DNA of 64,000 nt from Candidatus Parcubacteria bacterium (GTDB taxonomy: Bacteria > Patescibacteriota > Minisyncoccia > Phycocordibacterales > CAIZLB01), in the NCBI GenBank assembly GCA_039795775.1, contig JBDKLC010000004.1:21982-85981 (forward strand). Reading direction: 5' to 3'. The first letter of the stretch is position 1. Every line of letters starts with the position of its first letter. Shown one piece after another: positions 834 to 36,132 of the stretch. The position numbers were made by a program, and so were the translations under genes. The notes beneath the pieces were generated by a model. It saw nothing but the letters and a program-made list of their open reading frames with translations, ran no database searches and was not told the origin of the DNA.

Positions 834-837
834 AGTG

Positions 838-6177: not shown

Positions 6178-6193
6178 ACCCCGACCAACAAGA

Positions 6194-6508
6194 ATGGATA
6201 CTCAAACAAAAAAGTTTACAAGAAAGAAGGAAGACTTCGTTTGTGAACACTGTAAGGCAGAAGTAAAGGGAAGTGGCTATACCAACCACTGTCCGGTATG
6301 TCTTTGGAGCAAACACGTAGATATTAACCCTGGTGACAGAGCGGCTCTTTGCCTTGGAATGATGAAACCTAAGAAAATTGAGGGACCGACAGATAAGTTC
6401 ATGATTGTTCATGAATGTATCGTCTGTGGCTATACAAAGCGAAATAGAATGGAGTCTAATGACTCATATGACGCTGCAGCTGCTATTGTGAAGTCTTCAA
6501 TCCGGTAA
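6194..6508 (+). CDS. RNHCP-domain zinc-ribbon protein
   Basis: 104 aa with CEHC...YTNHCPVC...CIVC; the NHCP tetrad and paired Cys motifs fit the RNHCP domain family. Confidence 0.55.
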   Translation: MDTQTKKFTRKKEDFVCEHCKAEVKGSGYTNHCPVCLWSKHVDINPGDRAALCLGMMKPKKIEGPTDKFMIVHECIVCGYTKRNRMESNDSYDAAAAIVKSSIR

Positions 6509-7808
6509 TAAGCAGTGATCGAAGGCGTTCTCTCTGAGAAGCGTCAAAATCCTCTTTGAGTGTCTGAGTACTAAGAGAAAGTATTTCAGAAAGGCTTGAT
6601 CTCTTATAGAGCGAAAGAGTTTCGTTTATATGTCGTACGGTTATTGCGTGTACGTATTTTCGGTCTAGGTTGTTACTAGAGAGTATTGTGGTAATCATAC
6701 CGATTAGATTGCCGTGTTCGTCTGTAACAGCCCCTCCTGAAGAGCCTGGTTCAGCTATAGGGGTAGTCTGAGTCTGGATCAGGTCAATATATTTACCATT
6801 GAAACTAAAGTAGTCTCGAACTGTTGTATTATCGACAAGACTTCTCAAAAGACTATTTATACTTTGTTTTTGGAGTACGAGGGCAGGGTACGCAGCAAGG
6901 ATAATCTTCTGATTTACATAAGGAGTCTCAGCAATACTCACGAGGGGGAGATATGAGAAAGACTGAGCGTTTTGGCCGTCATTCTTGAGTTTTAATAGGG
7001 CAAAATCAAATTCTCCAGTTTCCTGTGGTCTTTCTTGTGCGAGATTTTTGTAGTTAATCTCGACCCATCGTGGAGAAATATAGAGAATATCGAGGTCGTA
7101 GCTTACAGAAGTAGGGGAACCGAGGCGGGCACTACATTTTAGATTGATATTTGAAAAGTCTTTTAATAGCAATAGATATTGAGCTACGTGGGCGTTTGTA
7201 AGCACAATTCCTCTAGAATCTATGATTGTTCCACTTCCTGTGAGGATTTTCTCAGTGTTTCCTTCTTTTGTGGTGCAGTAGATGTTTACAAGTGAATTTT
7301 GAATTCGGGCCTGTAACTCATTTGATTCTGTTGGCAAAGCAATCTTCTGAACTGGCTCAGGTGTGTAAAATACTGTTGTACTGGCAACAAGAATCTTTTT
7401 TGTTGTGGTAGATGTATTTGAAAGAGGAGAGTTATCGTTGAATGTCCCATCTATTCGTGGTGTTTGAGGTGCTTTTGGATCTAAGGTCTTAATCGAGGTC
7501 TTAGCAGATTGGGATGTTGTAGCCGTAATAGCGACTTTTTGAATGATTTTTGGACCTGATGTTGGTGTTGAGGCCTTTTTTGAAGAAACTTTTGTAGAAG
7601 TAGCCGTACCTGTTATTTTAAGTACAGGCTCTTTTTGGGTAAGGGGAATAGATGTGTCTTGAATCTTGAGTTGCTGCTCTACCGCAGTAGGAAGAGGTTG
7701 TGTCGGTGTAGCCGCAGGTGGAAGGGGGGTAGAAGATCCAGTAATAAGGGTAGTAATACCAACAATAGAAGAGACAATCTTTTGGCCAATTTTTTCGATT
7801 AATGTCAT
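6483..7808 (-). CDS. Membrane-anchored trypsin-like (S1 family) serine protease with Pro/Thr-rich linker
   Basis: 441 aa; N-terminal TM helix, TPLPPAATPTQPLP linker, catalytic motifs TNAHV (His) and GSSGGAV (Ser). Confidence 0.7.
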   Translation of the reverse strand: MTLIEKIGQKIVSSIVGITTLITGSSTPLPPAATPTQPLPTAVEQQLKIQDTSIPLTQKEPVLKITGTATSTKVSSKKASTPTSGPKIIQKVAITATTSQSAKTSIKTLDPKAPQTPRIDGTFNDNSPLSNTSTTTKKILVASTTVFYTPEPVQKIALPTESNELQARIQNSLVNIYCTTKEGNTEKILTGSGTIIDSRGIVLTNAHVAQYLLLLKDFSNINLKCSARLGSPTSVSYDLDILYISPRWVEINYKNLAQERPQETGEFDFALLKLKNDGQNAQSFSYLPLVSIAETPYVNQKIILAAYPALVLQKQSINSLLRSLVDNTTVRDYFSFNGKYIDLIQTQTTPIAEPGSSGGAVTDEHGNLIGMITTILSSNNLDRKYVHAITVRHINETLSLYKRSSLSEILSLSTQTLKEDFDASQRERLRSLLITGLKTSQ

Positions 7809-7862
7809 GGGCAGAGTATAGCAAATTGTCTTTCTAATGTCTGTTTGCTATAGTATCCGTAC

Positions 7863-7936
7863 GCGGGATTGGTTTAGTGGTAGAATGACTGCCTTCCAAG
7901 CAGTAGACAAGGGTTCGATTCCCTTATCCCGCACCA
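7863..7936 (+). tRNA. tRNA-Gly (anticodon TCC) with encoded CCA
   Basis: Acceptor GCGGGAT/ATCCCGC, anticodon stem ACTGC/GCAGT loop CTTCCAA, T-arm AAGGG-TTCGATT-CCCTT, A-CCA. Confidence 0.8.
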
Positions 7937-18438: not shown

Positions 18439-19512
18439 ATGAAAAAGAAAATCACACTCGTAGTTCACTTTCTTTTGCTTCTCATACTTCTTGTTGGAGG
18501 AATTGCTGTTCATCGAACCGTAATGGCTCAGGTCTCAACAGGAAATGTCACAGGATGGGCATGGTCAGACAACATTGGATGGGTAAGTTTCAATTGTTCT
18601 GACGTCTCAGATTTGTGTACAACGGCTTCATATGGAGTAGATGCAGATCCAGACACTGGGGCTCTTTCTGGGTATGCTTGGTCGGAAAGTGTTGGATGGC
18701 TTAGTTTTAATCCAGGGGATACAGGAGGATGTCCTGATGGAACTAATTGTGAAGCTAAAGTAGATTTTGCTACAGGAAAAATTACTGGATATGCACGTTT
18801 TTGTTCGGCTACTGCCAATGGCAATTGTACTGGAGGTATAGGTCCAGATGGATGGGACGGTTGGTTGAAACTTTCTTCGCCAGGTTCACCAAGTCTTTCA
18901 TCTCCAGTACTCGATGGGTCACAAGGTGCAACATATGATGCAAATACAACAAAAATTATGGGATATGGATGGGGAGGTGATGTTGTTGGATGGCTCAAGT
19001 TTAATAATTCATACAACGGAGTAAAAATTACTATAGATGTAAATAATCTTAAATGTAAGATCGACGAAACTGAATTTGATCTCAATACATTTATTACACG
19101 GTATAAGACAGGAGTAGCAACATCCACAGAAGCTTGTGAGTCATACTCTTCAACTTGTGAACAAGTAACTCCAACAGAAGCTGACTGGAACACAGATATT
19201 ACACCTATAGCTGACGGAACATATTCATATAGTACATGTACAGTTTCTTCAAGTACTTCGTGTGCAGAAGGAAATAACCCTTGTGATATTTCTGCATATA
19301 CTCAGGGTACAAATCTAGGACAGACAATGTCGTGTGGTGAGCAACGAAAGTTTTATAAACAAAAAGTTGTAGTAAACAACGCTGCTGGAACTATCTCATG
19401 TGAATCAAATGGAAATGCCGCTGTGCGAGTATGTGACAACGGAGTACTTACAGGTGATTCTTCATTCAACAAAGTTATTTGTCGAGTGAATCCGTATCAG
19501 AAAGAGCGATAG
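18439..19512 (+). CDS. Secreted Cys-rich repeat protein with tandem GxAWSxxxGWxSFN repeats
   Basis: 357 aa; signal peptide; repeats TGWAWSDNIGWVSFN, SGYAWSESVGWLSFN, MGYGWGGDVVGWLKFN plus a degenerate copy; many Cys; start overlaps previous stop by 4 nt (operonic). Confidence 0.5.
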   Translation: MKKKITLVVHFLLLLILLVGGIAVHRTVMAQVSTGNVTGWAWSDNIGWVSFNCSDVSDLCTTASYGVDADPDTGALSGYAWSESVGWLSFNPGDTGGCPDGTNCEAKVDFATGKITGYARFCSATANGNCTGGIGPDGWDGWLKLSSPGSPSLSSPVLDGSQGATYDANTTKIMGYGWGGDVVGWLKFNNSYNGVKITIDVNNLKCKIDETEFDLNTFITRYKTGVATSTEACESYSSTCEQVTPTEADWNTDITPIADGTYSYSTCTVSSSTSCAEGNNPCDISAYTQGTNLGQTMSCGEQRKFYKQKVVVNNAAGTISCESNGNAAVRVCDNGVLTGDSSFNKVICRVNPYQKER

Positions 19513-19586
19513 AAAATAAAAGTATCTGGGGAAACTCAGATACTTTTGTTGTAAGTTTGGTATAATTATTGAGATAACACATTAAC

Positions 19587-20549
19587 ATGATGAAACAAGT
19601 AGTACATATAATAAAAGTAATAATAATTGTTGGAGTATTGTTGGTTGGAGGACAATATCTCTATGCCTTTGGTCCGACATGTGCTCCACCAGATTGTAAC
19701 TCTGATGCTCCTATCAATGCGAGTTCAACTGATCAGATTAAGACAGGAGGTCTTACTATAGGTAAGAATATGTTTATTCAAGGAGCTACATGGGTTACGG
19801 GTCTCGACCCACAAGATAACGTTACTCCTCTCCAAATAGGTCTCGTTGTTCAAAACGGCCAAGTGTTGCTCGGTACAACAACACCAGTGGCGAACGCATC
19901 TAGTACTATGAGACTTGTTGTAAATGGTGGAGCTGGAGCGAGTGAATTCTGTGATCCAAGTGGAGTAAATTGTATTCCGTGGGATGCTTTGTACGATAGT
20001 GTATACAGTCCAGGTGGTTTCAACTGTTCTTCTGTTCCAACATTTACTACGTTGTACAATAAAGAGACAGGATATTACTTCAATCAACCTGTATTTGGAG
20101 AAAGTGGATACTACGGTGCTTCGTCTGCTCGAGGTTGGCAAAAAGTGAGCATGCCAGCTGCATGTTCAGAACCTGATGGTTGTATTATTCGAACAAAGAT
20201 TTATAAACGATATTCTGTACCAGGTTGGACATGTAATAACAGTGGTTGTACAGGTTGGTACGAAGATAAGCTGTATAAGATTACTGATACTGAATATCGA
20301 CAAGAAGCTGGTTCTGGTGCTCAGCTTTGGTGGAGTGCCTTCTCTACAAGTGGAAAACTCAAAAACGGCGATACTACGTCTTCAAACATTACATCAGGTG
20401 CTGGATCAATTGAATCTGGTGCATACAACCTCAGAGATGATCGAAATGCAACACTTTCTGCAGATGATGAACTCTCAAATGCACAATGGAGTCCATTTGA
20501 CAGTACTCGAAGTTACGGAGCAGAAGTATTTGTTTGTACAAACTCATAG
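19587..20549 (+). CDS. Hypothetical signal-anchored Cys-rich protein upstream of pilB
   Basis: 320 aa; N-terminal hydrophobic helix VIIIVGVLLVGG, paired Cys throughout; hairpin terminator at 20577-20615. Confidence 0.45.
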   Translation: MMKQVVHIIKVIIIVGVLLVGGQYLYAFGPTCAPPDCNSDAPINASSTDQIKTGGLTIGKNMFIQGATWVTGLDPQDNVTPLQIGLVVQNGQVLLGTTTPVANASSTMRLVVNGGAGASEFCDPSGVNCIPWDALYDSVYSPGGFNCSSVPTFTTLYNKETGYYFNQPVFGESGYYGASSARGWQKVSMPAACSEPDGCIIRTKIYKRYSVPGWTCNNSGCTGWYEDKLYKITDTEYRQEAGSGAQLWWSAFSTSGKLKNGDTTSSNITSGAGSIESGAYNLRDDRNATLSADDELSNAQWSPFDSTRSYGAEVFVCTNS

Positions 20550-20666: not shown

Positions 20667-22424
20667 ATGTTTCTCGAACCTACCCAATTAAAAAAGTTTA
20701 TTTCAGACTCAGGTCTTGTTACTCAAGACGATATTACTGCTGCAGAAAAAGTAGCTGAAGAAAAGAAGCAAAATCTCGGTGAAGCCCTAGTGTCTGCCGG
20801 AAAGATTACAGAAGACGATTATCGACGAATCCAAGCGTACCTCATTGGTATTCCATTCGTAGACCTCAAGAGTCAAAAGCTTGAATTTGATGTGCTTTCG
20901 CTTATTCCGGAACCTATTGCTCGAAATCACAATATCGTAGCTATTAAGAAGAAGGACAATGCTCTTGAAGTAGCCATGCTTGATACAGACGACCTCTCTG
21001 CGATCGACTTCATCAAAAAGAAGACTGGCCTCAAAGTTCTTCCTCGACTTACAAACACTGAGTCAATGCGTGCTGCTCTTATTCAGTACCAAAAGAGTTT
21101 GAAAGCTGACTTCGGAGATATCATTCAACAAGAAGCATCATCTCTCAAGATGGTAGCTCAAGACTCTGCGCCAGGGGAGGAAGTATCAGGAGACGACCTC
21201 AAGAAGCTCGCTGAAGACTTGCCTGTAGTACGTATTGTGGACACATTGCTCAAGCATGCAGCTCTCCAAGGTGCATCAGATATTCATATAGAACAGATGG
21301 AAAATGAAGTAGTCGTACGATATCGAATCGACGGTATGCTTCGAGATGCCATGATTTTGCCTAAAGCAGCCGGCGCAAGTATCACTGCTCGTATCAAAGT
21401 ACTCTCGAACCTCAAGCTCGACGAAAAACGACTCCCACAGGACGGACGATTCAAGATTGAACTCAATGATGAAAAGATTTCGTTCCGAGTATCTATTTTG
21501 CCTACATATTATGGTGAAAAGACTGTAATGCGACTTTTGCGAGAAAGTGTATCTGGGTTCTCACTCGAAACTCTTGGCTTCCACGGACAGGGTCTTGAAG
21601 CTATTCATGATGGAACACAAATGACAGAAGGTATGATGCTTACCACTGGTCCTACTGGTTCTGGTAAGACAACGACACTCTATACAGTGCTCGATCTCCT
21701 CAACACACCTGATGTAAACATCTCTACAGTAGAAGATCCAGTTGAATATCAGATGAAACGAGTAAATCAGACACAAGTAAAACCTGAAATCGGATTTACA
21801 TTCTCTTCAGGTCTCCGATCTCTTCTCCGACAAGACCCAGACATCATTATGGTGGGAGAAATTCGAGATAACGAAACAGCGTCACTTGCTATTAATGCGG
21901 CCCTCACAGGTCACGTAGTGCTCTCTACGCTTCACACCAACTCAGCAGCGGGTGCTATCCCACGACTTATTGATATGAAGTGTGAGCCGTTCCTTCTTGT
22001 ATCTACACTCAAGGTGGTAGTAGCGCAACGACTTGTGCGACGACTGAGTAAAGCAAAAGAAGAATATTTCCTTACAAAAGACGAATTGGCTTCTATTAAA
22101 AAGAAAATTGACATGGATCGAGTACTCAAGGCTCTCAAAGATGAAAAAATTGTAAAGCCTGATGCTGAATGGAAAGACATTCCACTGTATCGACCGAAAG
22201 CTGACAAAGATTCTGACGATGGCTACCACGGCCGAGTTGGTATTCATGAAGTTCTCAAGATGAGTACACCCATTAAAGAATTGATTATTAAGGGTGGCAC
22301 ATCTGACCAAATTGAAGAACAAGCAAAGAAGGAAGGTATGCTTACGATGATTGAAGACGGTGTATTCCAGGCGGTACAAGGGATGACATCGATTGAAGAA
22401 ATCTTGCGAGTAGTTTCTGAATAA
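20667..22424 (+). CDS. pilB: Type IV pilus assembly ATPase PilB (GspE family)
   Basis: 585 aa; N-terminal GSPII_E_N-like domain, Walker A TTGPTGSGKTTTL, Asp/His boxes of secretion ATPases. Confidence 0.85.
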   Translation: MFLEPTQLKKFISDSGLVTQDDITAAEKVAEEKKQNLGEALVSAGKITEDDYRRIQAYLIGIPFVDLKSQKLEFDVLSLIPEPIARNHNIVAIKKKDNALEVAMLDTDDLSAIDFIKKKTGLKVLPRLTNTESMRAALIQYQKSLKADFGDIIQQEASSLKMVAQDSAPGEEVSGDDLKKLAEDLPVVRIVDTLLKHAALQGASDIHIEQMENEVVVRYRIDGMLRDAMILPKAAGASITARIKVLSNLKLDEKRLPQDGRFKIELNDEKISFRVSILPTYYGEKTVMRLLRESVSGFSLETLGFHGQGLEAIHDGTQMTEGMMLTTGPTGSGKTTTLYTVLDLLNTPDVNISTVEDPVEYQMKRVNQTQVKPEIGFTFSSGLRSLLRQDPDIIMVGEIRDNETASLAINAALTGHVVLSTLHTNSAAGAIPRLIDMKCEPFLLVSTLKVVVAQRLVRRLSKAKEEYFLTKDELASIKKKIDMDRVLKALKDEKIVKPDAEWKDIPLYRPKADKDSDDGYHGRVGIHEVLKMSTPIKELIIKGGTSDQIEEQAKKEGMLTMIEDGVFQAVQGMTSIEEILRVVSE

Positions 22425-22466: not shown

Positions 22467-23678
22467 ATGAAATTTTCGTACACGGCTAAAAAGCCTGATG
22501 GCTCAACATACGACAGTACAATGGAAGCTGCTGATAAAGCTGCCTTCTATCGTGAACTACGAAAAATAGGTGATACTCTGATTAGTGTAAAGGAAGGGAA
22601 GAAAAGTGTTGGACAAATGGAAATTAACCTTCCATTTCTCAATCGTATAAAAATGATCGATAAGATCACGTTTGCTCGAAACATTAGTGGAATGCTCGAA
22701 GCTGGATTGCCACTCTCTCGTGCCTTAGCAGTATCTGAAAGACAAGCTTCAAATGTAAAACTCAAAAAGATTTATAAAGAGATCAACGAGTTTATTACAT
22801 CTGGTAAAACATTTCATGAAGCATTGGCACAGCATCCAAAGGTGTATTCAAGTCTCTTTATCTCAATGGTAAAAGCTGGCGAAGAAAGTGGAGATCTCGC
22901 AGGTTCTCTCAAGCATCTCGCTTCACAGATGGAAAAAACATACGTTATTCAGCGAAAGATTAAAGGTGCCATGATGTATCCAGGTATTATTCTTTCAGTT
23001 ATGGTACTCATCGGTATTTTGATGATGATTTTCGTAGTGCCGGCACTTACAAAGACATTTAAGGATTTGGGTACAAAGCTTCCAGCTTCTACTACATTTA
23101 TTATTGCTACAAGCGACTTTGCCTCAAATCATTACATCTTGTTAGTTCTTATCATTTTGGCAGCCGTCGTTGTCTTTATCTTGCTCCTTAAGACAAAAAT
23201 TGGTAAACGATACGCAGATTTTATTGTGTTACACTTGCCGGTTATTTCACTTATTGTAAAAGAGAGTAATGCTGCACGAACAGCTCGAACGCTTTCGTCA
23301 CTTCTTTCGGCTGGTGTTGATTTGCTCCTCGCGGTAAAGATCACTGGTGAAGTAATGCAAAACTCATTTTATAAAGAAGTTCTTCAGAGAACTGAAGTAG
23401 CTGTAGAAAAGGGGGACCCAGTATCAAAAATCTTTGAAGAAGAAACAAATTTGTATCCAGTATTCGTAGGAGAAATGATGAGTGTGGGTGAAGAAACTGG
23501 TAAATTTGCTTCAATGCTTACTGGTGTAGCTGTGTTCTATGAAAACGAAGTAGAAGAAAAAACAAAAGATCTTTCTACTATTATCGAACCAGTACTTATG
23601 GTGATTATCGGTGCCGGTGTAGGATTCTTCGCTGTCTCTATGATTATGCCGATGTATTCAGTGATGAATAATTTGTAA
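22467..23678 (+). CDS. pilC: Type IV pilus inner-membrane platform protein PilC (GspF family)
   Basis: 403 aa; duplicated GspF domains with three TM segments. Confidence 0.85.
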   Translation: MKFSYTAKKPDGSTYDSTMEAADKAAFYRELRKIGDTLISVKEGKKSVGQMEINLPFLNRIKMIDKITFARNISGMLEAGLPLSRALAVSERQASNVKLKKIYKEINEFITSGKTFHEALAQHPKVYSSLFISMVKAGEESGDLAGSLKHLASQMEKTYVIQRKIKGAMMYPGIILSVMVLIGILMMIFVVPALTKTFKDLGTKLPASTTFIIATSDFASNHYILLVLIILAAVVVFILLLKTKIGKRYADFIVLHLPVISLIVKESNAARTARTLSSLLSAGVDLLLAVKITGEVMQNSFYKEVLQRTEVAVEKGDPVSKIFEEETNLYPVFVGEMMSVGEETGKFASMLTGVAVFYENEVEEKTKDLSTIIEPVLMVIIGAGVGFFAVSMIMPMYSVMNNL

Positions 23679-24068: not shown

Positions 24069-25454
24069 TTAATTACTTGTCCAACTGAGTGGTTGATATC
24101 CTGAACTTGAAAGAGGAAAGCTTGGTGGTGCCGCGTAGAGAAGATTACTATCATATGTACTTTCTGTTGTCTGATATCCGGATGTAACATCATCTGAGCC
24201 ATTGACCCATGTCCATGTCCACTGACCGAATGTCATAATCGATCCGTACACTGTGATTTTATTTTTAATTTCACCTGAATAGAAAAAGAATTGTGCACTT
24301 CCGTTTTGAGCAATAAGTGCGGCGTCTATTTCGAGGTCATCAGGTGCTCTGTATGTCACCACGATATCTTTTTGTGCAAGAAGGCCAAGAGAATGATTAC
24401 CATCTTTTGCGAGGTAGGTAATATTATTTGGAATATAGATTGTTGGAGCGGTTGCTGCATTATAAGGGAGTTTTGATGCCGCAACCATGACACGTCCATT
24501 TACTACACCTTCTACCCACACGTTATCTTCGATATATATAATCCCGTTCGATGGAATAGCTTGGGTTGAAAGAAGTGTTCTGTTTTTATAGTCAATATCT
24601 TCGTTTCGTGCGTTTCCTGCAACATCCCAACCTGATGGTGTAGACCAAACACTTGTTACCTTGTAGATGCTTACAGTACCGTTTGAGTTGAATACGAGAG
24701 AATATCCTTGGCTGTTTGATGGAGCGAGATAAATACCGCCTGATTGTGCGTTTGCTTTCATACCAGCGAGGTTTGATGTGAGGGCAGAGAAGTCTACGGC
24801 CGGTACAGGATACTGCCAGAAATTTTTTGTTGTTTGGTTTGCGCTTCCCCAAATGCCAGCTTTTGTTGTAGGACAAGGACTTCCTTGTGAAGAAGGACAA
24901 CTATAAGTAGATTTTGCCGATGTAATAGGAGCATTTCCTGTTCCATCGAATCGAATTCCGTTATTAGACTTGAGCTGACCGTTAACTGTTTCATTGTCGC
25001 CCACCCAGATGACTGCATTTGTAAGGAAAGAGTATTGTGCAAGGGAAGGGATACCGTATTTTGCAGTAATTGTTCGCTTTATTTGCGGCTGATCTGTAGT
25101 CCAGCCAGTAGAAGAAATAGTGACTACAGTAGAGCCTGTTGGTGGAGGTGTGATAGTGAGACTGTATGTGCCGAGAACTTTTTGAGTATCAGTATCGACA
25201 TAGTTTCTAATATATGGACCAGATGTAGCTGTACCGTTTGTGTAGTCAGTTGGATAGTGAGCCAATCGCCACTGATAGTAGTTAATACCAGCCTCAGCAA
25301 TTTGTAGAGCCTGTTCTTTTGAAACAGTGGTAGCAAGTACTCGTGTTCGGATGACAAGCGATTGAATGATAGGCATCATCATCAACGAAAATATAAAGAT
25401 GACGATAAGAAGTAACACTAATATTTCTCCACGTTGTTTGTTTTGATGAGCCAT
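24069..25454 (-). CDS. Large pilus-associated protein (PilX/minor-pilin-like), N-terminal hydrophobic anchor
   Basis: 461 aa; N-terminus RGEILVLLLIVIFIFSL hydrophobic helix, Thr/Ser/Asn/Gly-rich remainder; co-oriented with two prepilin genes upstream. Confidence 0.4.
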   Translation of the reverse strand: MAHQNKQRGEILVLLLIVIFIFSLMMMPIIQSLVIRTRVLATTVSKEQALQIAEAGINYYQWRLAHYPTDYTNGTATSGPYIRNYVDTDTQKVLGTYSLTITPPPTGSTVVTISSTGWTTDQPQIKRTITAKYGIPSLAQYSFLTNAVIWVGDNETVNGQLKSNNGIRFDGTGNAPITSAKSTYSCPSSQGSPCPTTKAGIWGSANQTTKNFWQYPVPAVDFSALTSNLAGMKANAQSGGIYLAPSNSQGYSLVFNSNGTVSIYKVTSVWSTPSGWDVAGNARNEDIDYKNRTLLSTQAIPSNGIIYIEDNVWVEGVVNGRVMVAASKLPYNAATAPTIYIPNNITYLAKDGNHSLGLLAQKDIVVTYRAPDDLEIDAALIAQNGSAQFFFYSGEIKNKITVYGSIMTFGQWTWTWVNGSDDVTSGYQTTESTYDSNLLYAAPPSFPLSSSGYQPLSWTSN

Positions 25455-25459: not shown

Positions 25460-26113
25460 TTAGTTTCCTAAGTTTGTTTTTAAGCTTCGAAGTGTTCCAC
25501 CGGCTTGAATTGTATACGTCGTTGTCGCTGTTCGAATATTTTGTACCTTAACGAGTAGATTCATTTTAGCAAATTTTACCTGAGTGATGTTCACAGGTTG
25601 TGTAAGTGCAGATGTTGTTCCTGCATATGTATCAGCATAGTAATAAAATATTGGTGTTGATGTCCCGTTAGAAACATCAGTGAGTACAGTAGAAACTGTT
25701 TCAGAAGCAGAGTTGTATGTCAGCGGATTTCCAGACGGTGTAATAATGCCTTTGAAAAGAGAAGTGCCTGAAAGATAATAACGAACACGTCGTACAGTTG
25801 TAGAGCTGTTTGAGCCGAATGTTGTGTAAAGAATAATTTGAGATGAACTTGCATCATTGAGAGCCGCCGCACCATTATTTGCCGTTGTAGAGTTCCGTAA
25901 TTCGTTCGAAAAGTTAAAGACTACCAATCGAGCCTGATCAACGCCGTTGATTGCTTTTGTTTGTTGAGTAGATGTAACAAATATTTCTCGGAGCATTGTT
26001 GTAGCTCCAAGCATGATGATTGAGAATATACCGATAGTTACTACTGTTTCTACAAGTGTGTAACCAGGCATATATGACCGTGCATATTTTTTTGAACTTA
26101 TTTTCATGTGCAA
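25460..26113 (-). CDS. Type IV pilin-like protein (prepilin-type N-terminal cleavage/methylation domain)
   Basis: 217 aa; PGYTLVETVVTIGIFSIIM matches the class III signal (G|[FY]TLxE plus hydrophobic helix). Confidence 0.65.
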   Translation of the reverse strand: MHMKISSKKYARSYMPGYTLVETVVTIGIFSIIMLGATTMLREIFVTSTQQTKAINGVDQARLVVFNFSNELRNSTTANNGAAALNDASSSQIILYTTFGSNSSTTVRRVRYYLSGTSLFKGIITPSGNPLTYNSASETVSTVLTDVSNGTSTPIFYYYADTYAGTTSALTQPVNITQVKFAKMNLLVKVQNIRTATTTYTIQAGGTLRSLKTNLGN

Positions 26114-26122: not shown

Positions 26123-27916
26123 CTAAGAACTAAGCAACACTGTAAGTACATTATATCCGCTTATGTTCAAATTTGTTACTGTCTTTGTTGTATAACCTGT
26201 CATAGATGTTTGCACTTGATAGTCATTTGCAGCACTGAGTCCAGGGAACATAACTTGTCCCGGAGTAAAGCAACCTGATACATAGTTCACATCGAGGCTT
26301 GTAAGTACGGGTGTAACTGTTGTTGTACTGTTACTAAGATATGCTTTGTATCGAAGATATCGGTTATTGTTGTGAACACTACTAATAGATGTACCTGGCA
26401 CCGTGTAGTAGGTAGTTGAGGCACCATCTGGACCTAAGAAATTCCACGTAGTAGTCGAACCATCGTTACTTGAGGCAATTTGGAATCGTAGGGTTGTTGA
26501 AGCTGTTTGAGACTGAGGTTCCCAGTTGAGAGTCGTATAGAGGGTTGATGTTGAACCAGAATCAAATGTAGAAGACTGCAACCAGCCTGATGATGAATAA
26601 ACACCGAATGTTTTCTTGAGTCGTACACCAGTAGGGAGAGTAGCTGTATCAATATTTCCATCATTTGAGAAATACATAGTACTTGTACCCATATTTGCTT
26701 GTCCTACACCACCTGTCCAATCTTGTTGAGAGAAGGCACTACCGCCAGTAATAAGAGTATCGTCATACCCAGATCGTGTGAGTCGTACATTTGCTCCTTC
26801 GATAGCCACTCCAGTTGCAGCATCTTTTACAATTACCAAAAGACTATTTGTTGTTATAGGGCCAACAATAAGGTTAAAGTTCTGAGATGTCTGAGGAAGG
26901 ATGTTAATTTGCTGGATAGGAGATGATCCATAAATCATATAACTTGAAGTAGAGAGTGCTGGGGTATAGTTGTCCCATTCAATATTTGAAAGCACCACTT
27001 GGCCACTACCGTTTGATGTATAGGTATTATTAAACTTGTAGACACTCGGAGTACCAATGATTTTTGCACCTTTTACCCCGATTCCGACATTTGATAGAGG
27101 TGCACAGCTCTGGTTGAGGGTATTAAAGGTAAGATTACTCAACTTATCGATAGAAAAACTGATTTGAGTCACTGTTCCATTCAAAATCGTAGCATCTGGC
27201 TTAGTTGGGTTAGGGTTTCCAACTGAGACAGGATATGTCTGATCTGAAGAATACCCTGTTTTTGTAGCAGTTACATGATAGTTATTTGAACTCTGAGGGA
27301 GACCCACTTCTGTCCAGTAGCCATTGGCATCAGTGGTTCGGGTAATGTTGATATCTGGGGTTAAAGCCGTATTTGTGATGTTTATTTGGGCTCCAGGCAC
27401 AGGCTGACCTACGGCGTCGAATACTTGTACTGTAAAAGCACCCGCATTATTGGTGTTTTCAAGACCTGCTGGGGTGATATTAGTAACAAATGTTGTTACT
27501 ACGTTAGTTCGGGTGTTTTTTATGTTTAATTTGACCTGTTTGTAGTCTGTTGGGGCAGGATCAGTGCTTGACGCGATTGTTCCATCTGCTGGGTCGTCTA
27601 CAAAGCTACTTTCATAGTAGATTTGATAGGTAATGTTGTTATAGCTTGTCGATGTGGCATTTGGAAGGTCTACAAGGATACCAGTCGGGTTACCGTTTAC
27701 GGTACCAACCTGGCTATAGGGAAGGTTTCTAACAATTTCCATATACTGAGCAGCGAGATTTGAAATAGTAGTGTTTTCTCGATACACACCCGCGAGCTTA
27801 ATAATAAGCGTACTTGTAGAGTAGACAGTAAGAGCGAGCCCAGCAAAAATACCGATACTAATAAGTGTTTCAATTAAAGTAAATCCTTTTTGATTTCTAG
27901 AGATAGAACGTTTCAT
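26123..27916 (-). CDS. Large type IV pilin (prepilin N-terminus plus ~560-aa Thr/Ser/Asn-rich domain)
   Basis: KGFTLIETLISIGIFAGLALT canonical prepilin motif; start placed at MKRSIS within ORF 26123-28006. Confidence 0.7.
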   Translation of the reverse strand: MKRSISRNQKGFTLIETLISIGIFAGLALTVYSTSTLIIKLAGVYRENTTISNLAAQYMEIVRNLPYSQVGTVNGNPTGILVDLPNATSTSYNNITYQIYYESSFVDDPADGTIASSTDPAPTDYKQVKLNIKNTRTNVVTTFVTNITPAGLENTNNAGAFTVQVFDAVGQPVPGAQINITNTALTPDINITRTTDANGYWTEVGLPQSSNNYHVTATKTGYSSDQTYPVSVGNPNPTKPDATILNGTVTQISFSIDKLSNLTFNTLNQSCAPLSNVGIGVKGAKIIGTPSVYKFNNTYTSNGSGQVVLSNIEWDNYTPALSTSSYMIYGSSPIQQINILPQTSQNFNLIVGPITTNSLLVIVKDAATGVAIEGANVRLTRSGYDDTLITGGSAFSQQDWTGGVGQANMGTSTMYFSNDGNIDTATLPTGVRLKKTFGVYSSSGWLQSSTFDSGSTSTLYTTLNWEPQSQTASTTLRFQIASSNDGSTTTWNFLGPDGASTTYYTVPGTSISSVHNNNRYLRYKAYLSNSTTTVTPVLTSLDVNYVSGCFTPGQVMFPGLSAANDYQVQTSMTGYTTKTVTNLNISGYNVLTVLLSS

Positions 27917-28047
27917 TGAGGTTTGGAGAACTGAGTAAATTTTACCACATATGTGAGATGTGTGTGGAGCAAAATGATGTGGTCTGGTGTGTATTTTGAG
28001 GTACAACTATCTCCCGTCTATTTCTTACATCTGCTATAATTTCGAAC

Positions 28048-30050: not shown

Positions 30051-30485
30051 TTATGAGAGTGAAATTTCTGTTTTGATCTTTTCGAGTACTTGTTCAGCTT
30101 CGCCTTGTACGTATGTCTTGTGTGGCATATCTTCAATTCCATCATCAGATATTCTCGGAATAAGGTGAATATGAGTGTGAGAGACTTGTTCTCCATTCAT
30201 CATTACCATCATTCCATCAGAATCAACCGCATTTCGTATATCGATGGCTAGCTTTCGGGCCGTAATGATAAGACGACACATTGTTTCGTCTGGGGTAGTA
30301 AGGATATTTTCGAAATGGTCTTTTGGAATAACAAGCGTGTGTCCAGGATTTATTGGTTTAATATCGAGAAAAGCAAAGGTATTGTCGTCCTCATATACCT
30401 TATGAGCTGGGATTTCCCCTGTAATAATTTTACAAAAAATACAATCGTTGTGTGTTTGGTGTAGGTCTTGAGTCATAAGGCACAT
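30051..30485 (-). CDS. HIT-family (histidine triad) hydrolase
   Basis: CIFCKI...HTHIHLIP histidine-triad motif; start at internal Met of ORF 30051-30542. Confidence 0.75.
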   Translation of the reverse strand: MCLMTQDLHQTHNDCIFCKIITGEIPAHKVYEDDNTFAFLDIKPINPGHTLVIPKDHFENILTTPDETMCRLIITARKLAIDIRNAVDSDGMMVMMNGEQVSHTHIHLIPRISDDGIEDMPHKTYVQGEAEQVLEKIKTEISLS

Positions 30486-30521
30486 TGTATGATAAAATCG
30501 GCGAATAGCAATTGCTACCTT

Positions 30522-32219
30522 ATGCCAAATTACGCATTTCAACCCTCAAATGGCACTACGTTGACCGAACAACTCTTGTTCAGTCGAGGCCATAAAACAA
30601 AAGAGGCGCAAGATGCATTTCTTAGTCCAGACTACGATAGGGGTATTCACGACCCATTTCTCCTCAAAGATATGGATGTAGCCGTAGAACGGATTGTTCG
30701 AGCAATCAAAAACAATGAAAGAATTGTTGTGTATGGTGATTTCGATGCAGATGGGGTACCCGCGTCAGTGCTTATGCATGATTTTTTTAAGAAAATTTCA
30801 TATACCAATTTTTCAAATTACATCCCACATCGACATCTTGAGGGGTTTGGACTCCACAAGGATGCCATTTCGAAAGTGAAGGAAGAGGGAGCCCAGCTTC
30901 TCATTACGCTCGATTGCGGCATTACTGATGTTGATGAAGTCGACTTTGCAAACAGCCTCGGCATTGACGTCATTATCACGGATCACCATTTGCCAGGGCC
31001 TGAGTTGCCACAGGCGGTGGCTGTTGTAGATCCAAAACGTGCTGACTGCTCGTATCCATTCGATATGCTCTGTGGAGCCGGTGTTGCATTCAAACTTGTT
31101 CAAGGACTTCTTGCATATGATCGATCTCATGAAAACGTCTGGAATGTAAAAGAAGGATGGGAAAAGTGGCTTCTCGATATGGTGGGCATTGCCACACTTT
31201 CTGACATGGTGCCGCTTCATGGCGAAAACAGAGTGCTCGCATATTTTGGTTTGAAAGTTCTTCGAAAGTCACCTCGACTTGGTTTGGTGAAATTACTTAA
31301 ATCACTCGATATCAAACAACAACATCTTGTTGAAGATGACATCGGATTTTTGATCACGCCTCGTATCAATGCTGCATCTCGAATGGCAAACCCAATGGAT
31401 GCTTTCAATATGCTTACAGCTGCTACTGATGAAGAAGCAGAACGAACTGTTACATTTTTGAATACATTAAATGTTGAAAGAAAAAGTGCTGTTGCTGTAA
31501 TGATGAAAGAAATTAAAAAGAAAGTTGAAGGAAGAGATCTTACATCAAAATCTGTTTTTGTTTTAGGAAATCCAAATTGGAAACCGTCGCTTCTTGGACT
31601 TGTTGCAACATCACTTGTTCGTGAATATGACCGACCTGTTTTTTTGTGGGGGAGATCAGAAGACGGAACGCTCAAGGGTTCAACACGATCAGATGGTCGA
31701 GTCGACATTGTTCAACTTATGCGTGCGGTACCACGAGAAATATTTATAGACTTTGGTGGTCACGTAATGTCAGGTGGATTTTCTTTGACCGACGATCATG
31801 TTCATCGATTTGAAGATGAACTTTGTACAGCACATGATTCACTTTCGAAACAAGAAATAAATTCTTCAGTACTTATTGATGCGCGTATCACATCAAATGA
31901 TGTGACATGGGACTTATTTTCAACGATTGAAAAACTTGCACCATTTGGAGAAGCAAATCCGAAACCACTTTTTATGGTGGAGAATGTTGTGCTTACTAAT
32001 GCAAAAACGTTTGGTAAAACAGGTGATCACTTTGAGGTTACATTTACAGGTGCGAAGGCAAAGAAACTTTCAGCTATTAAGTTTTTTATTGAAGATAACG
32101 AAATATACAAGAATTTAAAACCGGGTGATAAAGTTCATCTTGTTGCAAATTTAGAGAAGTCTATGTTCAGAAATTTTCCTGAGCTTCGACTGCGAATTGT
32201 TGATATACTACCAGCATAA
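30522..32219 (+). CDS. recJ: Single-stranded-DNA-specific exonuclease RecJ (start uncertain: alternative TTG at 30561)
   Basis: DHH (VVYGDFDADGV, ITDHH) and DHHA1 (GGH) motifs; the long ORF from 30468 would overlap the divergent HIT gene. Confidence 0.8.
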   Translation: MPNYAFQPSNGTTLTEQLLFSRGHKTKEAQDAFLSPDYDRGIHDPFLLKDMDVAVERIVRAIKNNERIVVYGDFDADGVPASVLMHDFFKKISYTNFSNYIPHRHLEGFGLHKDAISKVKEEGAQLLITLDCGITDVDEVDFANSLGIDVIITDHHLPGPELPQAVAVVDPKRADCSYPFDMLCGAGVAFKLVQGLLAYDRSHENVWNVKEGWEKWLLDMVGIATLSDMVPLHGENRVLAYFGLKVLRKSPRLGLVKLLKSLDIKQQHLVEDDIGFLITPRINAASRMANPMDAFNMLTAATDEEAERTVTFLNTLNVERKSAVAVMMKEIKKKVEGRDLTSKSVFVLGNPNWKPSLLGLVATSLVREYDRPVFLWGRSEDGTLKGSTRSDGRVDIVQLMRAVPREIFIDFGGHVMSGGFSLTDDHVHRFEDELCTAHDSLSKQEINSSVLIDARITSNDVTWDLFSTIEKLAPFGEANPKPLFMVENVVLTNAKTFGKTGDHFEVTFTGAKAKKLSAIKFFIEDNEIYKNLKPGDKVHLVANLEKSMFRNFPELRLRIVDILPA

Positions 32220-32242: not shown

Positions 32243-32977
32243 ATGAATATGAAAGAAGTTACAATTTTTACTGATGGAGCATCACGAGGTAATCCAGGTC
32301 CGGGAGGTTGGGCTGCGGTGACTGTGTTTCCTGATGCTCATGGAGTTATGCATGTCGATGAACTTGGCGGACGTGAAGCTCTCACTACAAACAACAGAAT
32401 GGAGATGATGGCTGCGCTCAAATCTCTCCAACACTTTGATGGATTTTATGAAAATTTTAAAGAAGTAACATTTACTATTTTTACGGATTCTTCATACCTT
32501 TTAAACGGTGCTACAAAATGGGTATTTGGATGGGTAAAAAATAATTGGAAAACAGGAAAAGAAGAGGTGAAAAATAGAGACATTTGGGAAGGGATTTTAA
32601 AAGCAATGGAAGGCAAACACATCACATGGAAATTGCTCAAGGGACACTCTGGTGTGCCTGGAAATGAACGATGTGATGTTATTTCAACTGAGTTTGCTGA
32701 TGAAAAAGATGTGGAATTGTACAAAGGTACTCTCAGTGCATATGGCATAAAATATGTGATGAATACCAGCGTGTTACCTGTTTCACAGACTAAAAAGAAG
32801 TCATCTTCTTCAGAAAAAGCTTATTCTTACGTGAGTTTGGTAGATGGTAACATTGAAACTCACACAAACTGGGGAGACTGCGAAAAGAGAGTAAAGGGGG
32901 CTAGCAAGGCTCGATTTAAGAAATCTTTCTCAAAAGAAGATGAAGCTGCGATTATTGCAGACTTTCTTCAGAAATAA
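32243..32977 (+). CDS. rnhA: Ribonuclease HI with C-terminal RNA/DNA hybrid-binding (Cauli_VI-type) domain
   Basis: N-terminal FTDGASRGNPGPGGWAAV RNase H fold; C-terminal KAYSYVSLVDGNIETHTNWGDCEKRVKGASKARFKKSFSKEDEAAIIADFL resembles the eukaryotic RNase H1 HBD (ARFKKF...EDEA). Confidence 0.8.
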   Translation: MNMKEVTIFTDGASRGNPGPGGWAAVTVFPDAHGVMHVDELGGREALTTNNRMEMMAALKSLQHFDGFYENFKEVTFTIFTDSSYLLNGATKWVFGWVKNNWKTGKEEVKNRDIWEGILKAMEGKHITWKLLKGHSGVPGNERCDVISTEFADEKDVELYKGTLSAYGIKYVMNTSVLPVSQTKKKSSSSEKAYSYVSLVDGNIETHTNWGDCEKRVKGASKARFKKSFSKEDEAAIIADFLQK

Positions 32978-33032: not shown

Positions 33033-34439
33033 ATGAGCATGAAAAGTGCTCATATTTTTTTATTAATTTCTATTGTTTCAATTGTGGCACTCCGGTGGCA
33101 CTTTTTGCCCACAGACAGTCCACAAATCGCACAATTTTTGCTGTCATTACCGAGCAGTACAAGTAGTGTGCAAATGATAGGAAATATTATTGATGAACCA
33201 GAAAAAAAGAAGACCCACATAAACGTGTTGATAGAGGTTGAACAATATGGATTAGCGAGTAGCACGGACATGGACAACACCGTTCAAGTTCAATATAAAA
33301 AGAACGTCCTTGTCCTTGCCTCGATCCCACAATTTAGTTCAGTCAATTATGGTGACAAAATTAAAGTTGTCGGAAAAATAAAAAAGCCTGAAGTTATCAT
33401 TTCTGAAGATGGGTCTGAATTTAACTATCCGGCATATCTTGCAAAGAGCAACATTTTTTATGTGATGGATGCCAAGAGTTCTGAGATCATCTCAACTGGA
33501 GGAGGTAATCCAATTAAGTCAGATCTTTTGTTGTTCAAGAAACAGCTTTTGCAAAACATAAATAACGTACTACCAACACCTCACTCTTTTTTAGCAGGTG
33601 GTTTGATTATTGCAGGAAAGGGATCGCTTGATGATGAACTTCAGGAAGAATTTAAAAGGGCAGGACTTGTACATATTGTTGTGCTATCGGGTTTCAATAT
33701 TACGATTGTTGGGCAATTCATTATTTCTATATTCTCTTTTTTGCCACTGATGCTTAAAAGTATATTTGGAAGTTTGGGAATTATTGCGTTTTCAGTTATG
33801 GCAGGTAGTAGCGCAACTGTTGTCCGGTCGGTGGTCATGTCTATTATTGGATTGTATGCACGGGTATCCGAAAAAAGTTATGACGCTCTCCGTGGTCTGT
33901 TGGTTGCTGGTGTTGGTATGGTTGTTCACAATCCAAGAATTCTTTTGTATGATCCGTCGTTTCAACTTAGTTTTATGGCAACGCTCGGACTTATTCTTTT
34001 GGGTTCGACTGTTCAGAAATTTTTTATGTGGGTTCCTGAAACATTAGGGATGAGAGAAATTGTTACATCAACTTTTGCTACTCAGATATTTGTGACACCT
34101 CTTATCTTACATTTGTCAGGAATGATCTCTCTTGTTTCACTTTTTGTGAATATCTTAGTGCTTCCTGTTATTCCCTTGACCATGTTGTTCGCGTGTCTTT
34201 GCGGTGTGGTCAGTTTCATACATCCAAGTTTTTCAATACCATTCTCATTTGTTTCATACATTCTTCTTACATACGAGCTTTCACTAGTGCACATTTTTTC
34301 ATCACTTTCGTTCGCCGCAATTTCTCTTCCTAAAATTTCTACAGGCGCAACCTTAGCGGTATATTCAATATATGGAGTTATTTTTATTTGCATACAATTC
34401 GTACAAAAAATTTATAAAACAAAAAGCCCGCCAACATAG
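33033..34439 (+). CDS. comEC: ComEC/Rec2 DNA-uptake channel protein, N-terminal plus competence domain only (no MBL domain)
   Basis: 468 aa polytopic membrane protein; GLVHIVVLSGFNITIV competence-domain motif. Confidence 0.7.
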   Translation: MSMKSAHIFLLISIVSIVALRWHFLPTDSPQIAQFLLSLPSSTSSVQMIGNIIDEPEKKKTHINVLIEVEQYGLASSTDMDNTVQVQYKKNVLVLASIPQFSSVNYGDKIKVVGKIKKPEVIISEDGSEFNYPAYLAKSNIFYVMDAKSSEIISTGGGNPIKSDLLLFKKQLLQNINNVLPTPHSFLAGGLIIAGKGSLDDELQEEFKRAGLVHIVVLSGFNITIVGQFIISIFSFLPLMLKSIFGSLGIIAFSVMAGSSATVVRSVVMSIIGLYARVSEKSYDALRGLLVAGVGMVVHNPRILLYDPSFQLSFMATLGLILLGSTVQKFFMWVPETLGMREIVTSTFATQIFVTPLILHLSGMISLVSLFVNILVLPVIPLTMLFACLCGVVSFIHPSFSIPFSFVSYILLTYELSLVHIFSSLSFAAISLPKISTGATLAVYSIYGVIFICIQFVQKIYKTKSPPT

Positions 34440-34546
34440 CGGACCTTTGTGAAACTCTTTTTTCGCCTTAGTTCATGTCTCTCTGATTGATGGTATTCAT
34501 CACGCTGTGCAACCAGTGAAAGATGTGTCACACATCATCTTCAAAA

Positions 34547-35140
34547 CTATGAAACGTATGAATTGAACCGTTCCTCAACCTTGAGGGAGTTGATGTTCTT
34601 AAAGAATGCCTCAACATAGTTCTTCTTTTCTCCTGGAACATAGTCGAGCATGTATGAGTGCTCCCACATATCGAGAGCGAGCACTACCTTGAGGCCAGTG
34701 AGGTGACCAAGATGCTGTTCATCTACCCATGCATTCATAAGTCGCTTTGTCTCTGGGTCGTAGTAGAGAATCGCCCATCCAATACCTCGAGTCATCGCTA
34801 CGGCTTTAAATCGAGCAAGCCAAGCATCAAATGAACCCCATTCTTCAGCAATCTTCTTTGAGAGAGCACTATCGGCTGAAAACTCTGATGCGCCGCCTTC
34901 AAACTGTTCGAAATAATATTCGTGGTTTCGCATACCATCGAATTCAAATCCAAACCGTCGCTGAAGTTCGCCCATAGCATAGGCATTCTTTTCGGCGTCA
35001 GCAGACATCTCTTTGATCTTGTCGATGATCAAATTTGAGTGTTTAACATAGCCAGCATACAACTTAAGGTGCTCATCAATAGATTTCTTTGAAATACCAT
35101 TGAGTTCGCCAATTGAGAATGTTCGTTCTGTAAATGACAT
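34547..35140 (-). CDS. sodA: Fe/Mn superoxide dismutase
   Basis: 197 aa; HxxxH N-terminal and DMWEHSY C-terminal metal-ligand motifs. Confidence 0.85.
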   Translation of the reverse strand: MSFTERTFSIGELNGISKKSIDEHLKLYAGYVKHSNLIIDKIKEMSADAEKNAYAMGELQRRFGFEFDGMRNHEYYFEQFEGGASEFSADSALSKKIAEEWGSFDAWLARFKAVAMTRGIGWAILYYDPETKRLMNAWVDEQHLGHLTGLKVVLALDMWEHSYMLDYVPGEKKNYVEAFFKNINSLKVEERFNSYVS

Positions 35141-35158
35141 AAAACTAAATTAAAGATA

Positions 35159-36064
35159 ATGAGTAATCTAACGAAGCTAGTATATCACGGGCATTTTCTG
35201 GCAATACTTGTGCTCGTCCCACTTGTATTGAATATTTTTGTGACGTATGTTCTTTTTCAGGAAAAGGCTTTAAATACTGACTTTTTACAAGTTACATACC
35301 TTGATATCGGCCAAGGTGATTCAATATTTATTCAAGCCCCACATGGCCAGACCATGTTGATAGATGCGGGGCTTCCAACGAGCAATGCACTCGCTGGTAT
35401 AGGTAAACTGGTGCCATTCTACGAAAAATCAATCGATGTTGTAATGGCTAGTCATCCGGATGCAGATCATATAGGAGGTTTGCCGAATGTTATAAAAAAC
35501 TATAAACCCGGTGTATTTATTGAGTCTGGTGTAAGTGCTCGGACAGAAATTGATACTGCTCTTCATGACGAATTGAGAAAGCAAAACATACATACATTAT
35601 TTGCACGAAGAGGAATGAAAATACTACTGGACGAAACAAATAATGTTGTTATAGATATTCTATTCCCAGACCGTGATGTATCAACTTGGACAAAGAATAC
35701 GAATGACGCATCAATTGTTGCGCGTCTAAAATATGGAAATGAGACATTCTTGTTTAATGGTGATTCACCTATAAAAATAGAAGAACACCTAATTCAAACT
35801 CTTAGAAAAGAGGCTTTAAATATAGATGTTTTAAAGGTGGGACACCACGGTTCACGTACATCTACGAGTGATATATTCGTAAAATATATTCAACCTCGGA
35901 TTGCAATTATTTCAGCTGGTAAAGAAAATAGATACAAGCATCCACATAACGAGGTCATTGAAGTTCTAAAAAAGAATAATGTGGAGATTTTACGGACAGA
36001 TCAACAGGGAACTATTACGTATGAAACCGATGGAAAACAACACCGTACTCGCAACAAAAAGTAA
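35159..36064 (+). CDS. Membrane-anchored MBL-fold hydrolase corresponding to the ComEC C-terminal nuclease domain
   Basis: 301 aa; TYLDIGQGDSIFIQ...HPDADHIGG...LKVGHHGS motifs of the ComEC/Rec2-type metallo-beta-lactamase domain; N-terminal TM helix. Confidence 0.7.
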   Translation: MSNLTKLVYHGHFLAILVLVPLVLNIFVTYVLFQEKALNTDFLQVTYLDIGQGDSIFIQAPHGQTMLIDAGLPTSNALAGIGKLVPFYEKSIDVVMASHPDADHIGGLPNVIKNYKPGVFIESGVSARTEIDTALHDELRKQNIHTLFARRGMKILLDETNNVVIDILFPDRDVSTWTKNTNDASIVARLKYGNETFLFNGDSPIKIEEHLIQTLRKEALNIDVLKVGHHGSRTSTSDIFVKYIQPRIAIISAGKENRYKHPHNEVIEVLKKNNVEILRTDQQGTITYETDGKQHRTRNKK

Positions 36065-36084
36065 TGTACAACAGCGCAAAAAGA

Positions 36085-36113
36085 AAAAGCTCAACCGAAG
36101 TTGAGCTTTTTCT
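36085..36113. terminator. Bidirectional hairpin terminator between MBL gene and rpmB
   Basis: AAAAAGCTCAAC-cgaa-GTTGAGCTTTTT. Confidence 0.6.
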
Positions 36114-36132
36114 TTTGATTTATATATAAAGA

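Follow-up and report, generated by a model that had tools for sequence, protein, structure and literature searches.

A probable two-gene ComEC in a Candidatus Parcubacteria bacterium and its relatives: a competence channel and a separately anchored, predicted nuclease

The ComEC/Rec2 proteins of Neomoorella carbonis (structure 30bt), N. glycerini (nuclease domain, 9ic4) and Bacillus subtilis carry on a single chain, in this order, an OB fold, a Competence transmembrane (TM) domain and a last helix, TM11, followed by a metallo-β-lactamase (MBL) domain with the H-x-D-x-D-H motif. Cryo-electron microscopy of ComEC has revealed 11 TM helices with a short cytoplasmic helix joining TM10 and TM11, a peripheral TM11 for which no density was observed in one protomer, and a periplasmic MBL domain held on a flexible linker and making a small conserved contact with the OB fold (PMC13539106). 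Three helices precede the OB fold in most ComECs, the Helicobacter pylori protein with its one helix being an exception (PMC13539106). A metal-dependent nuclease activity is needed for DNA uptake in the case of the B. subtilis and Moorella ComECs (PMC8579336, PMC12455585). Here we describe a ComEC locus in a stretch of 64,000 nucleotides from a Candidatus Parcubacteria bacterium (assembly GCA_039795775.1, contig JBDKLC010000004.1, positions 21,982 to 85,981), hereafter the window, in which all coordinates are counted and from the sequence of which the open reading frames (ORFs) were read. The window pair displays the same modules in the same order as single-chain ComEC, but on two polypeptides, the split falling at what we place as the cytoplasmic TM10-TM11 loop; it also differs from most ComECs in having one TM helix instead of three before the OB fold, and from the single-chain form in that a superoxide dismutase (SOD) gene on the opposite strand separates the two genes. 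We consider it probable that this is a natural and long-conserved two-gene ComEC, in which a channel and a TM11-anchored nuclease work in trans in DNA uptake.

ComECs without a nuclease domain have been catalogued before. Silale et al. (2021) reported that almost half of ComECs lack it and described strand removal in these cases as an open question (PMC8579336). The "DC" profile of Pimentel and Zhang (2018) and family fam000603 of the candidate phyla radiation (CPR) of Meheust et al. (2019) combine DUF4131 and Competence, exactly like the window channel. Pimentel and Zhang catalogued such ComECs in a text from which the words "split" and "separate" are absent, and Meheust et al. found the ComEC-MBL fusion to be essentially absent in CPR. 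In both surveys the domains were counted on the Competence-containing protein only and no partner gene was reported, whereas in the window the domain is found next door with its own TM helix. A paper on Chlamydia remarks in passing that competence-domain genes often neighbour genes of the lactamase superfamily, and source annotations name both halves "ComEC". Other proteins offer partial parallels. EndA of Streptococcus pneumoniae sets a functional precedent for nuclease action in trans; it differs in not being a ComEC domain, and pneumococcal ComEC keeps its own, probably inactive, MBL domain. EndA is membrane-anchored and has an unrelated nuclease fold. Lipoproteins of Armatimonas, Ruminococcaceae, Clostridia and Alloiococcus (L042, L044, L061 and L085) carry a similar extracytoplasmic MBL domain, but possess a lipobox L-x-G-C instead of a TM11-like helix and have no channel gene within 6 kb. 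Pce/CbpE also resembles the window protein in its extracytoplasmic MBL domain; Pce is a phosphorylcholine esterase sharing 12% identity with it. An explicit description of a split ComEC was not found in the literature search, which turned up only Meheust et al. (2019) and the remark in the Chlamydia paper. The ingredients are already known; the two-gene system, the travelling of TM11 with the nuclease, the spread in the CPR lineages sampled, the operonic basal state, the gene-accepting gap and the SOD sandwich are absent from the literature found.

The first of the two genes encodes a channel without an MBL domain, as had been proposed from the sequence in the original prediction. PF13567 (DUF4131) matches residues 5-152 (E 2e-13, 50.7 bits against a cutoff of 31.6), and PF03772 (Competence) matches residues 191-455 over model positions 1-268 of 270 (E 1.4e-41, 143 bits against a cutoff of 23). 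The Pfam scan found no MBL domain in this ORF, which stops after the Competence domain. In the solved full-length ComEC chain 30bt_A (801 amino acids), residues 142-491 are the counterpart of channel residues 103-456 (E 5e-25), and an AlphaFold2 (AF2) model shows a β-rich domain at residues 46-154 of the channel. The helix that we equate with TM10 is followed by a Lys-rich C-terminal tail, VQKIYKTKSPPT, the basic character of which is consistent with a cytoplasmic end. A single TM helix precedes the OB fold. The match of the channel to its family hidden Markov model (HMM) starts at about position 52, as it does in L001, L005, L008 and L018, and other CPR channels match from positions 1-10.

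The second gene encodes the missing module. PF00753 (Lactamase_B) matches with an E-value of 5e-18, the MBL domain spanning residues 42-296, and a hydrophobic helix of 21 residues (13-33) lies upstream of it. The motifs GQGDS, HPDADHIGG and VGHHGS, along with a GD motif, are present, the three former on invariant columns of an alignment of 34 sequences; D54, H99, D101, D103, H104, D202, H229, H230 and H261 are the same in all of 34 stand-alone homologues, the mean identity of which is about 50%. The MBL nuclease is therefore predicted to be catalytically intact and of the ComEC type. A search of solved structures returned ComEC for the six best matches (E 4e-35 to 1e-12), among them the 9ic4 nuclease domain (E 3.7e-35), and the first MBL protein other than ComEC only at E 3.5e-5; the gene does not group with unrelated MBL hydrolases, an outcome that would have spoken against its assignment to ComEC. 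The JGI gene call for this protein (P0001) is only 278 amino acids long, with its first residue inside the TM helix. In favour of the ATG at 35159, the N-terminus that it yields, MxxLTxLVYHxxF, is conserved in P0002-P0004. Several further database homologues (P0019, P0026) seem shortened at the N-terminus like the JGI call.

Taken together, the two window proteins account for one ComEC chain. Both align to 30bt_A, residues 27-294 of the MBL protein corresponding to residues 519-790, and they cover complementary parts of TIGR00361: positions 71-383 of 663 for the channel (63.2 bits) and positions 423-663 of 663 for the MBL protein (155.3 bits, E 1.8e-45). Neither alone reaches the curated cutoff of 190.05 bits of this full-length equivalog, in which the MBL domain belongs to the channel polypeptide and not, as here, to a separate ORF. 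The Pfam and TIGR00361 E-values of the window proteins are far beyond chance. In fused relatives, TM10 is followed by a loop of 20-35 amino acids rich in Arg and Lys, then by TM11 and by the sequence FLDVGQGD. The N-terminal helix of the MBL protein aligns to the segment preceding the MBL domain in fused ComECs and is here equated with TM11. The break would thus fall in the cytoplasmic TM10-TM11 loop and the nuclease gene would carry TM11 as its own anchor, a placement made from the 30bt_A alignment and the published topology. The charge distribution around the helix points to the same topology. Among 44 split CPR MBL proteins, the mean net charge of the flank N-terminal to the helix is +2.25 and that of the C-terminal flank +0.07, the former exceeding the latter in 36 of the 44. 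A positive N-terminal flank argues for an N-in/C-out orientation, with the MBL domain outside the membrane as in ComEC, and this domain is accordingly predicted to be extracytoplasmic. An AF2 model of the artificial re-fusion of both proteins, calculated with an unpaired alignment, reached a mean pLDDT of 90.3 and a pTM of 0.71, confidence being lower solely at the junction, and lends weak support to the overall assembly. Foldseek places the crystal structure of the ComEC nuclease domain, 9ic4, first for the MBL part of this model (TM-score 0.84, E 3e-20), followed by Pce, which has likewise been reported as the nearest neighbour of the MBL domain of ComEC itself (PMC12455585).

An opposite-strand gene between two parts of ComEC gives at first the impression of a local accident, i.e. 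a fused comEC broken by insertion of the SOD gene, or a misassembly, leaving one or both halves as pseudogenes. Disruption by rearrangement had indeed been offered in the original prediction as the alternative to a natural two-gene ComEC, with intact fused relatives as the observation that would decide for it. The comparative data led us to reject it, and its likelihood is now close to nil. The 120 best homologues of the MBL protein are all stand-alone proteins of about 260-320 amino acids from Patescibacteria (44-59% identity), and those of the channel, again the best 120 (38-61% identity), measure 430-560 amino acids without exception and combine DUF4131 with Competence, lacking MBL; every close homologue of either half is therefore unfused. 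At 50% identity, 5,783 clusters match the MBL protein at E <= 1e-30, and among the best 150 cluster representatives 149 are 204-402 amino acids long. The sole long protein among these 150, P0365 (721 amino acids), has a ComEC-type MBL domain at its N-terminus (residues 45-294) and a second matched stretch. The block RecJ-RNaseH-channel-SOD(-)-MBL-L28(-)-M50-S12, where the minus sign marks the opposite strand, was seen again in about 25 independent assemblies, with MBL identities of 34-59%. Assemblies with the channel-SOD(-)-MBL triad come from NCBI, ENA, JGI and Logan and from different samples. Neither misassembly nor a recent disruption can yield a recurrent gene order in independent assemblies, which rules both out. 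Moreover, both ORFs are intact, with no variation at the catalytic residues, and the site of the break is one at which a loop naturally joins TM helices. Look-ups with the MBL protein and, independently, with the SOD protein returned the same longer order, PGK, HIT(-), RecJ, RNase H, channel, SOD(-), MBL, L28(-), M50, S12, S7 and EF-G, and the PGK-HIT(-)-RecJ-RNaseH-channel part of this synteny was found in about 20 loci.

The two-gene state reaches beyond the loci with an SOD gene. The MBL-family alignment was scanned against one genome per GTDB species, which yielded 80 loci; these, the look-up loci and the window, after removal of three duplicates, were classified with channel, MBL and SOD HMMs on six-frame ORFs. 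The channel-SOD(-)-MBL arrangement was found in 20 loci, to which come four cut by a contig end and three more SOD-anchored loci. Channel and MBL genes abut in 13 loci, including L082, and a different gene occupies the gap in eight. Fused into a single ORF, of about 700-855 amino acids where complete, the two parts occur in 22 loci, none of them from CPR (Chloroflexota, Gemmatimonadota, UBP8 and others). The rest of the classified loci are stand-alone MBL genes without a channel gene in the stretch examined. For 10 of 12 loci of the abutting class, the distance from channel stop to MBL start is between -31 and +36 nucleotides; two ATGA overlaps and a TAGATG junction occur, as is characteristic of a single operon whose genes are translationally coupled. 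In four of the loci with another gene in the gap, this gene lies on the opposite strand and encodes a VTT/DedA membrane protein; the gap is otherwise filled by genes for RNase III, a methyltransferase, an RlpA-like product or an unknown membrane protein, and one JGI contig holds an ABC transporter, SOD and a small ORF there. Neighbour-joining trees of the MBL domain and of concatenated channel and MBL sequences (100 bootstraps), which have weak deep support and no true outgroup, place the fused forms outside, let the abutting CPR forms branch first and gather all SOD-type loci in one derived group. We take the split to be general in the sampled CPR lineages; SOD appears to have been inserted later and mostly once, in Paceibacteria, with a few losses or replacements.

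L082 (Gemmatimonadales, 4374-6780) was considered as a split outside CPR and rejected: its two ORFs overlap in different frames, and the second has neither start codon nor anchor. It looks like a frameshift, by sequencing error or in a pseudogene, in a normally fused comEC. Many records labelled TPA_asm "uncultured Candidatus Saccharibacteria bacterium" (L007, L009, L012-L014, L020 and others) have the Parcubacteria-type synteny block and cluster with loci of Nomura-, Taylor- and Yonathbacteria; their names have the look of placeholders, and no taxonomic use was made of them.

Within the window, the MBL ORF begins 720 nucleotides downstream of the end of the channel ORF, past the SOD gene, which is convergent with the channel gene and divergent from the MBL gene (Table 1). 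Base composition is uninterrupted across the region. A consensus terminator scan identified hairpins after each gene. The one overlapping the channel stop codon resembles a terminator of the SOD gene and might act in both directions; that directly 3' of the MBL gene is common to it and to the convergent L28 gene. A consensus promoter scan, which does not cover CPR promoters, found no convincing plus-strand promoter for the MBL gene, and the spacer between the divergent SOD and MBL start codons leaves too little room for two complete promoters. Judging from these signals, the channel, SOD and MBL genes appear to form separate transcription units in this genome.

Table 1. Features of the two-gene ComEC locus and of the neighbouring loci in the window, with the evidence for each.
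Feature	Position	Strand	Remarks and evidence
PilB ATPase	20667-22424	+	Pfam T2SSE
PilC platform	22467-23678	+	Pfam T2SSF
Pilin/minor-pilin-like genes	24069-25454, 25460-26113, 26123-28006	- (all)	Pfam N_methyl, PilX_N
RecJ	30468-32219	+	Pfam; conserved upstream neighbour
RNase H	32243-32977	+	Pfam; conserved upstream neighbour
ComEC channel subunit	33033-34439	+	468 aa; Pfam, alignment to 30bt_A
Channel, DUF4131 (OB fold)	33045-33488	+	
Channel, Competence TM domain	33603-34397	+	
G+C-rich hairpin, then T-run	34422-34448	-	overlaps channel stop codon; consensus scan and sequence
Predicted Fe/Mn superoxide dismutase	34547-35140	-	197 aa; Pfam, 1coj alignment
SOD/MBL start-codon spacer	35141-35158	.	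18 nt; sequence
Predicted ComEC nuclease subunit	35159-36064	+	301 aa; Pfam, TIGR00361, 9ic4, 30bt_A
Nuclease subunit, hydrophobic helix	35195-35257	+	
Nuclease subunit, MBL domain	35282-36046	+	
Terminator-like hairpin, 17-bp stem	36079-36116	+	directly 3' of MBL stop; consensus scan

Several points weigh against a joint function of the two proteins. Their co-transcription is unlikely here, since an opposite-strand gene and terminator-like hairpins lie between the genes. Co-evolution of the halves, proposed as a check in the original prediction, gave no specific channel-MBL signal in mirror-tree analyses of low power (23 and 16 loci): the correlation between channel and MBL distances was 0.62 and 0.50, as compared to 0.72 and 0.73 between channel and M50, with low partial correlations. 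At least three CPR loci (L017, L022 and L032) lack a channel gene within about 6 kb upstream of the MBL gene. The nuclease domain is more active in vitro with the OB fold on the same polypeptide (PMC12455585), so that an arrangement in trans could be less efficient. The AF2 model is that of an artificial fusion with an unpaired alignment, and the binding of the channel to the MBL protein is something that we infer.

These points invite another explanation, in which the MBL protein would be an independent surface-anchored nuclease or phosphodiesterase, serving for instance to scavenge nucleotides from environmental DNA or in a Pce-like envelope chemistry, derived from ComEC but no longer cooperating physically with the channel, and linked to its gene solely by inherited synteny. 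The separate transcription units, the mirror-tree result and the loci lacking an upstream channel gene would fit it, and so would the ComEC-like MBL proteins that stand alone, unlinked to any channel gene, in Firmicutes and Armatimonas, as well as the fact that, after ComEC, the next structural neighbour of the fold is the phosphorylcholine esterase Pce. We nevertheless hold it to be unlikely. It leaves a channel without a nuclease of its own, and does not account for an N-terminal helix aligning to the segment just before the MBL domain of fused ComEC, while the non-CPR stand-alone forms possess lipoboxes and not such a helix. In basal CPR lineages the genes abut or overlap, and elsewhere they remain within about 1-2.5 kb, despite the entry of at least six different genes into the gap. 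Finally, ComEC nuclease domains are the best sequence matches by about 30 orders of magnitude in E-value. A natural two-gene ComEC thus remains the reading that we favour.

The gene lying between the halves is a probable Fe/Mn SOD gene, as had been recognized from the sequence. Sod_Fe_C matches with an E-value of 8e-23 (80.8 bits against a cutoff of 20.9), while Sod_Fe_N is weak (21.1 bits against 27). Its best solved relative is the Aquifex Fe-SOD 1coj (E 1e-24), and the conserved His and Asp residues of EH, NHEYYF and DMWEHSY are present, among them candidate metal ligands by the general pattern of the Fe/Mn SOD family; however, the position that corresponds to the second His of H-x3-H is a gap in the alignment to 1coj. 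The protein shares 67-91% identity with its 120 best homologues. On contigs of relatives (5132, 9757 and 10880 bp), SOD identity is 91, 86 and 82%, that of the channel 61, 58 and 50%, and that of the MBL protein 55, 57 and 53%. The higher conservation of SOD may be read either as strong constraint or as gene exchange.

One may ask whether SOD is held between the halves for a function, with overlapping divergent promoters or antisense transcription coupling the nuclease to oxidative stress, or through a link by manganese. It is found at the exact same site in all three SOD-anchored look-ups and in 24 other loci, the divergent starts are only 2, 18 and 29 nucleotides apart in L001, L002 and L005 (18 in the window, hence 2-29 in the four loci measured), the protein is far more conserved than its neighbours, and the ComEC nuclease domain has been reported to be Mn-dependent (PMC8579336). 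Conversely, the same gap holds VTT/DedA, RNase III, methyltransferase or RlpA-like genes in other CPR lineages, and an ABC transporter in one contig; as unrelated genes fill it elsewhere, a functional reason for SOD is unnecessary. L014 is nested among the SOD-type loci with 100% bootstrap support and yet has no SOD, its channel and MBL genes overlapping, which makes a loss of SOD probable in this locus. The correlation of SOD distances with those of the neighbours is poor (r 0.27-0.34), and the synteny of the whole block is so stable that passive retention would suffice. A functional role of the SOD position is for these reasons quite improbable. SOD rather appears to be a passenger that entered the gap in the ancestor of one Paceibacteria group and then stayed, its insertion being a derived state that appears confined to this group and its position probably having no functional meaning. 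The SOD wedge is useful as a synteny marker for the group.

A type IV pilus locus with PilB, PilC and pilin-like genes lies 5 kb upstream of the channel gene, in line with the original prediction, which had associated it with the ComEC genes in a DNA-uptake apparatus. Just upstream of PilB, two ORFs of 357 and 320 amino acids (18439-20549, plus strand) have no Pfam match, and a 784-residue protein with an Ig-like domain (15542-17896, plus strand) precedes them; the ORFs upstream of PilB may be lineage-specific pilus components. The window is a chromosomal segment of Parcubacteria/Paceibacteria (Patescibacteria, CPR); its SOD protein is deposited under the name Candidatus Parcubacteria bacterium, and the other neighbours of the ComEC locus are housekeeping genes. 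The upstream neighbour RNase H shows a weak C-terminal match (residues 208-235) to the "RNase H1 N-terminal" hybrid-binding domain (Cauli_VI). This layout is shared by the relative L088, and other relatives have a short RNase H of 132-164 amino acids. Further away, a 936-residue protein (57600-60410, plus strand) displays weak matches to coupling-protein domains of the TraG/VirD4/TrwB type and may be a component of the type IV secretion system, resembling conjugation machinery, that has been described in Patescibacteria (PMC12102498). The first part of the window (64-7936) contains an NYN-domain protein (64-669), a tyrosine recombinase (1236-2129), an Exo_endo_phos nuclease (2178-2996) and four tRNA genes (5109-7936).

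From the domains observed, the homology of the channel and MBL proteins to a single ComEC chain, the conserved catalytic residues, the topology signals and the lineage-wide synteny, we infer that the two window proteins assemble in trans, that the second is an active nuclease and that both serve in DNA uptake. In the channel gene product, a single N-terminal TM helix would be followed by an extracellular OB fold and by the TM bundle of the Competence domain, and the chain would terminate in the cytoplasm past the equivalent of TM10. The N-terminal helix of the nuclease, equivalent to TM11, would act as an uncleaved N-in/C-out signal anchor exposing the MBL domain on the outer face of the membrane, and this helix, together with the small OB-MBL interface, would bring the nuclease to the mouth of the channel. 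DNA would be delivered by the type IV pilus of the neighbouring locus; the nuclease would degrade the non-transported strand while the other passes through the channel, and the imported DNA would serve transformation and/or nucleotide salvage. Natural transformation of a cultivated CPR bacterium depends on ComEC (PMC10633639), and DNA uptake for nucleotide salvage has been proposed for CPR.

In the sampled Patescibacteria, the ComEC nuclease domain thus appears to be not lost but encoded by a neighbouring gene, with the last TM helix of ComEC as its anchor, and domain censuses or annotations scoring only the Competence-containing protein under-report the CPR nuclease. The arrangement constitutes a natural experiment on the need for a covalent linkage between channel and nuclease. 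It shows a possible cut site for ComEC, in what we place as the TM10-TM11 loop, and may provide smaller, separately expressible ComEC subunits for biochemistry. As to its origin, a more speculative idea, which we regard as possible but on balance doubtful, is that the CPR layout preserves or reproduces a pre-fusion ComEC: the nuclease would once have been an independent signal-anchored protein encoded beside the channel gene, TM11 of present single-chain ComEC, peripheral and mobile in the cryo-EM structure, would be its former anchor, and some of the ComECs "lacking" a nuclease, roughly half of those in bacteria, may encode the domain in trans. If true, this would bear on how such organisms remove the non-transforming strand.

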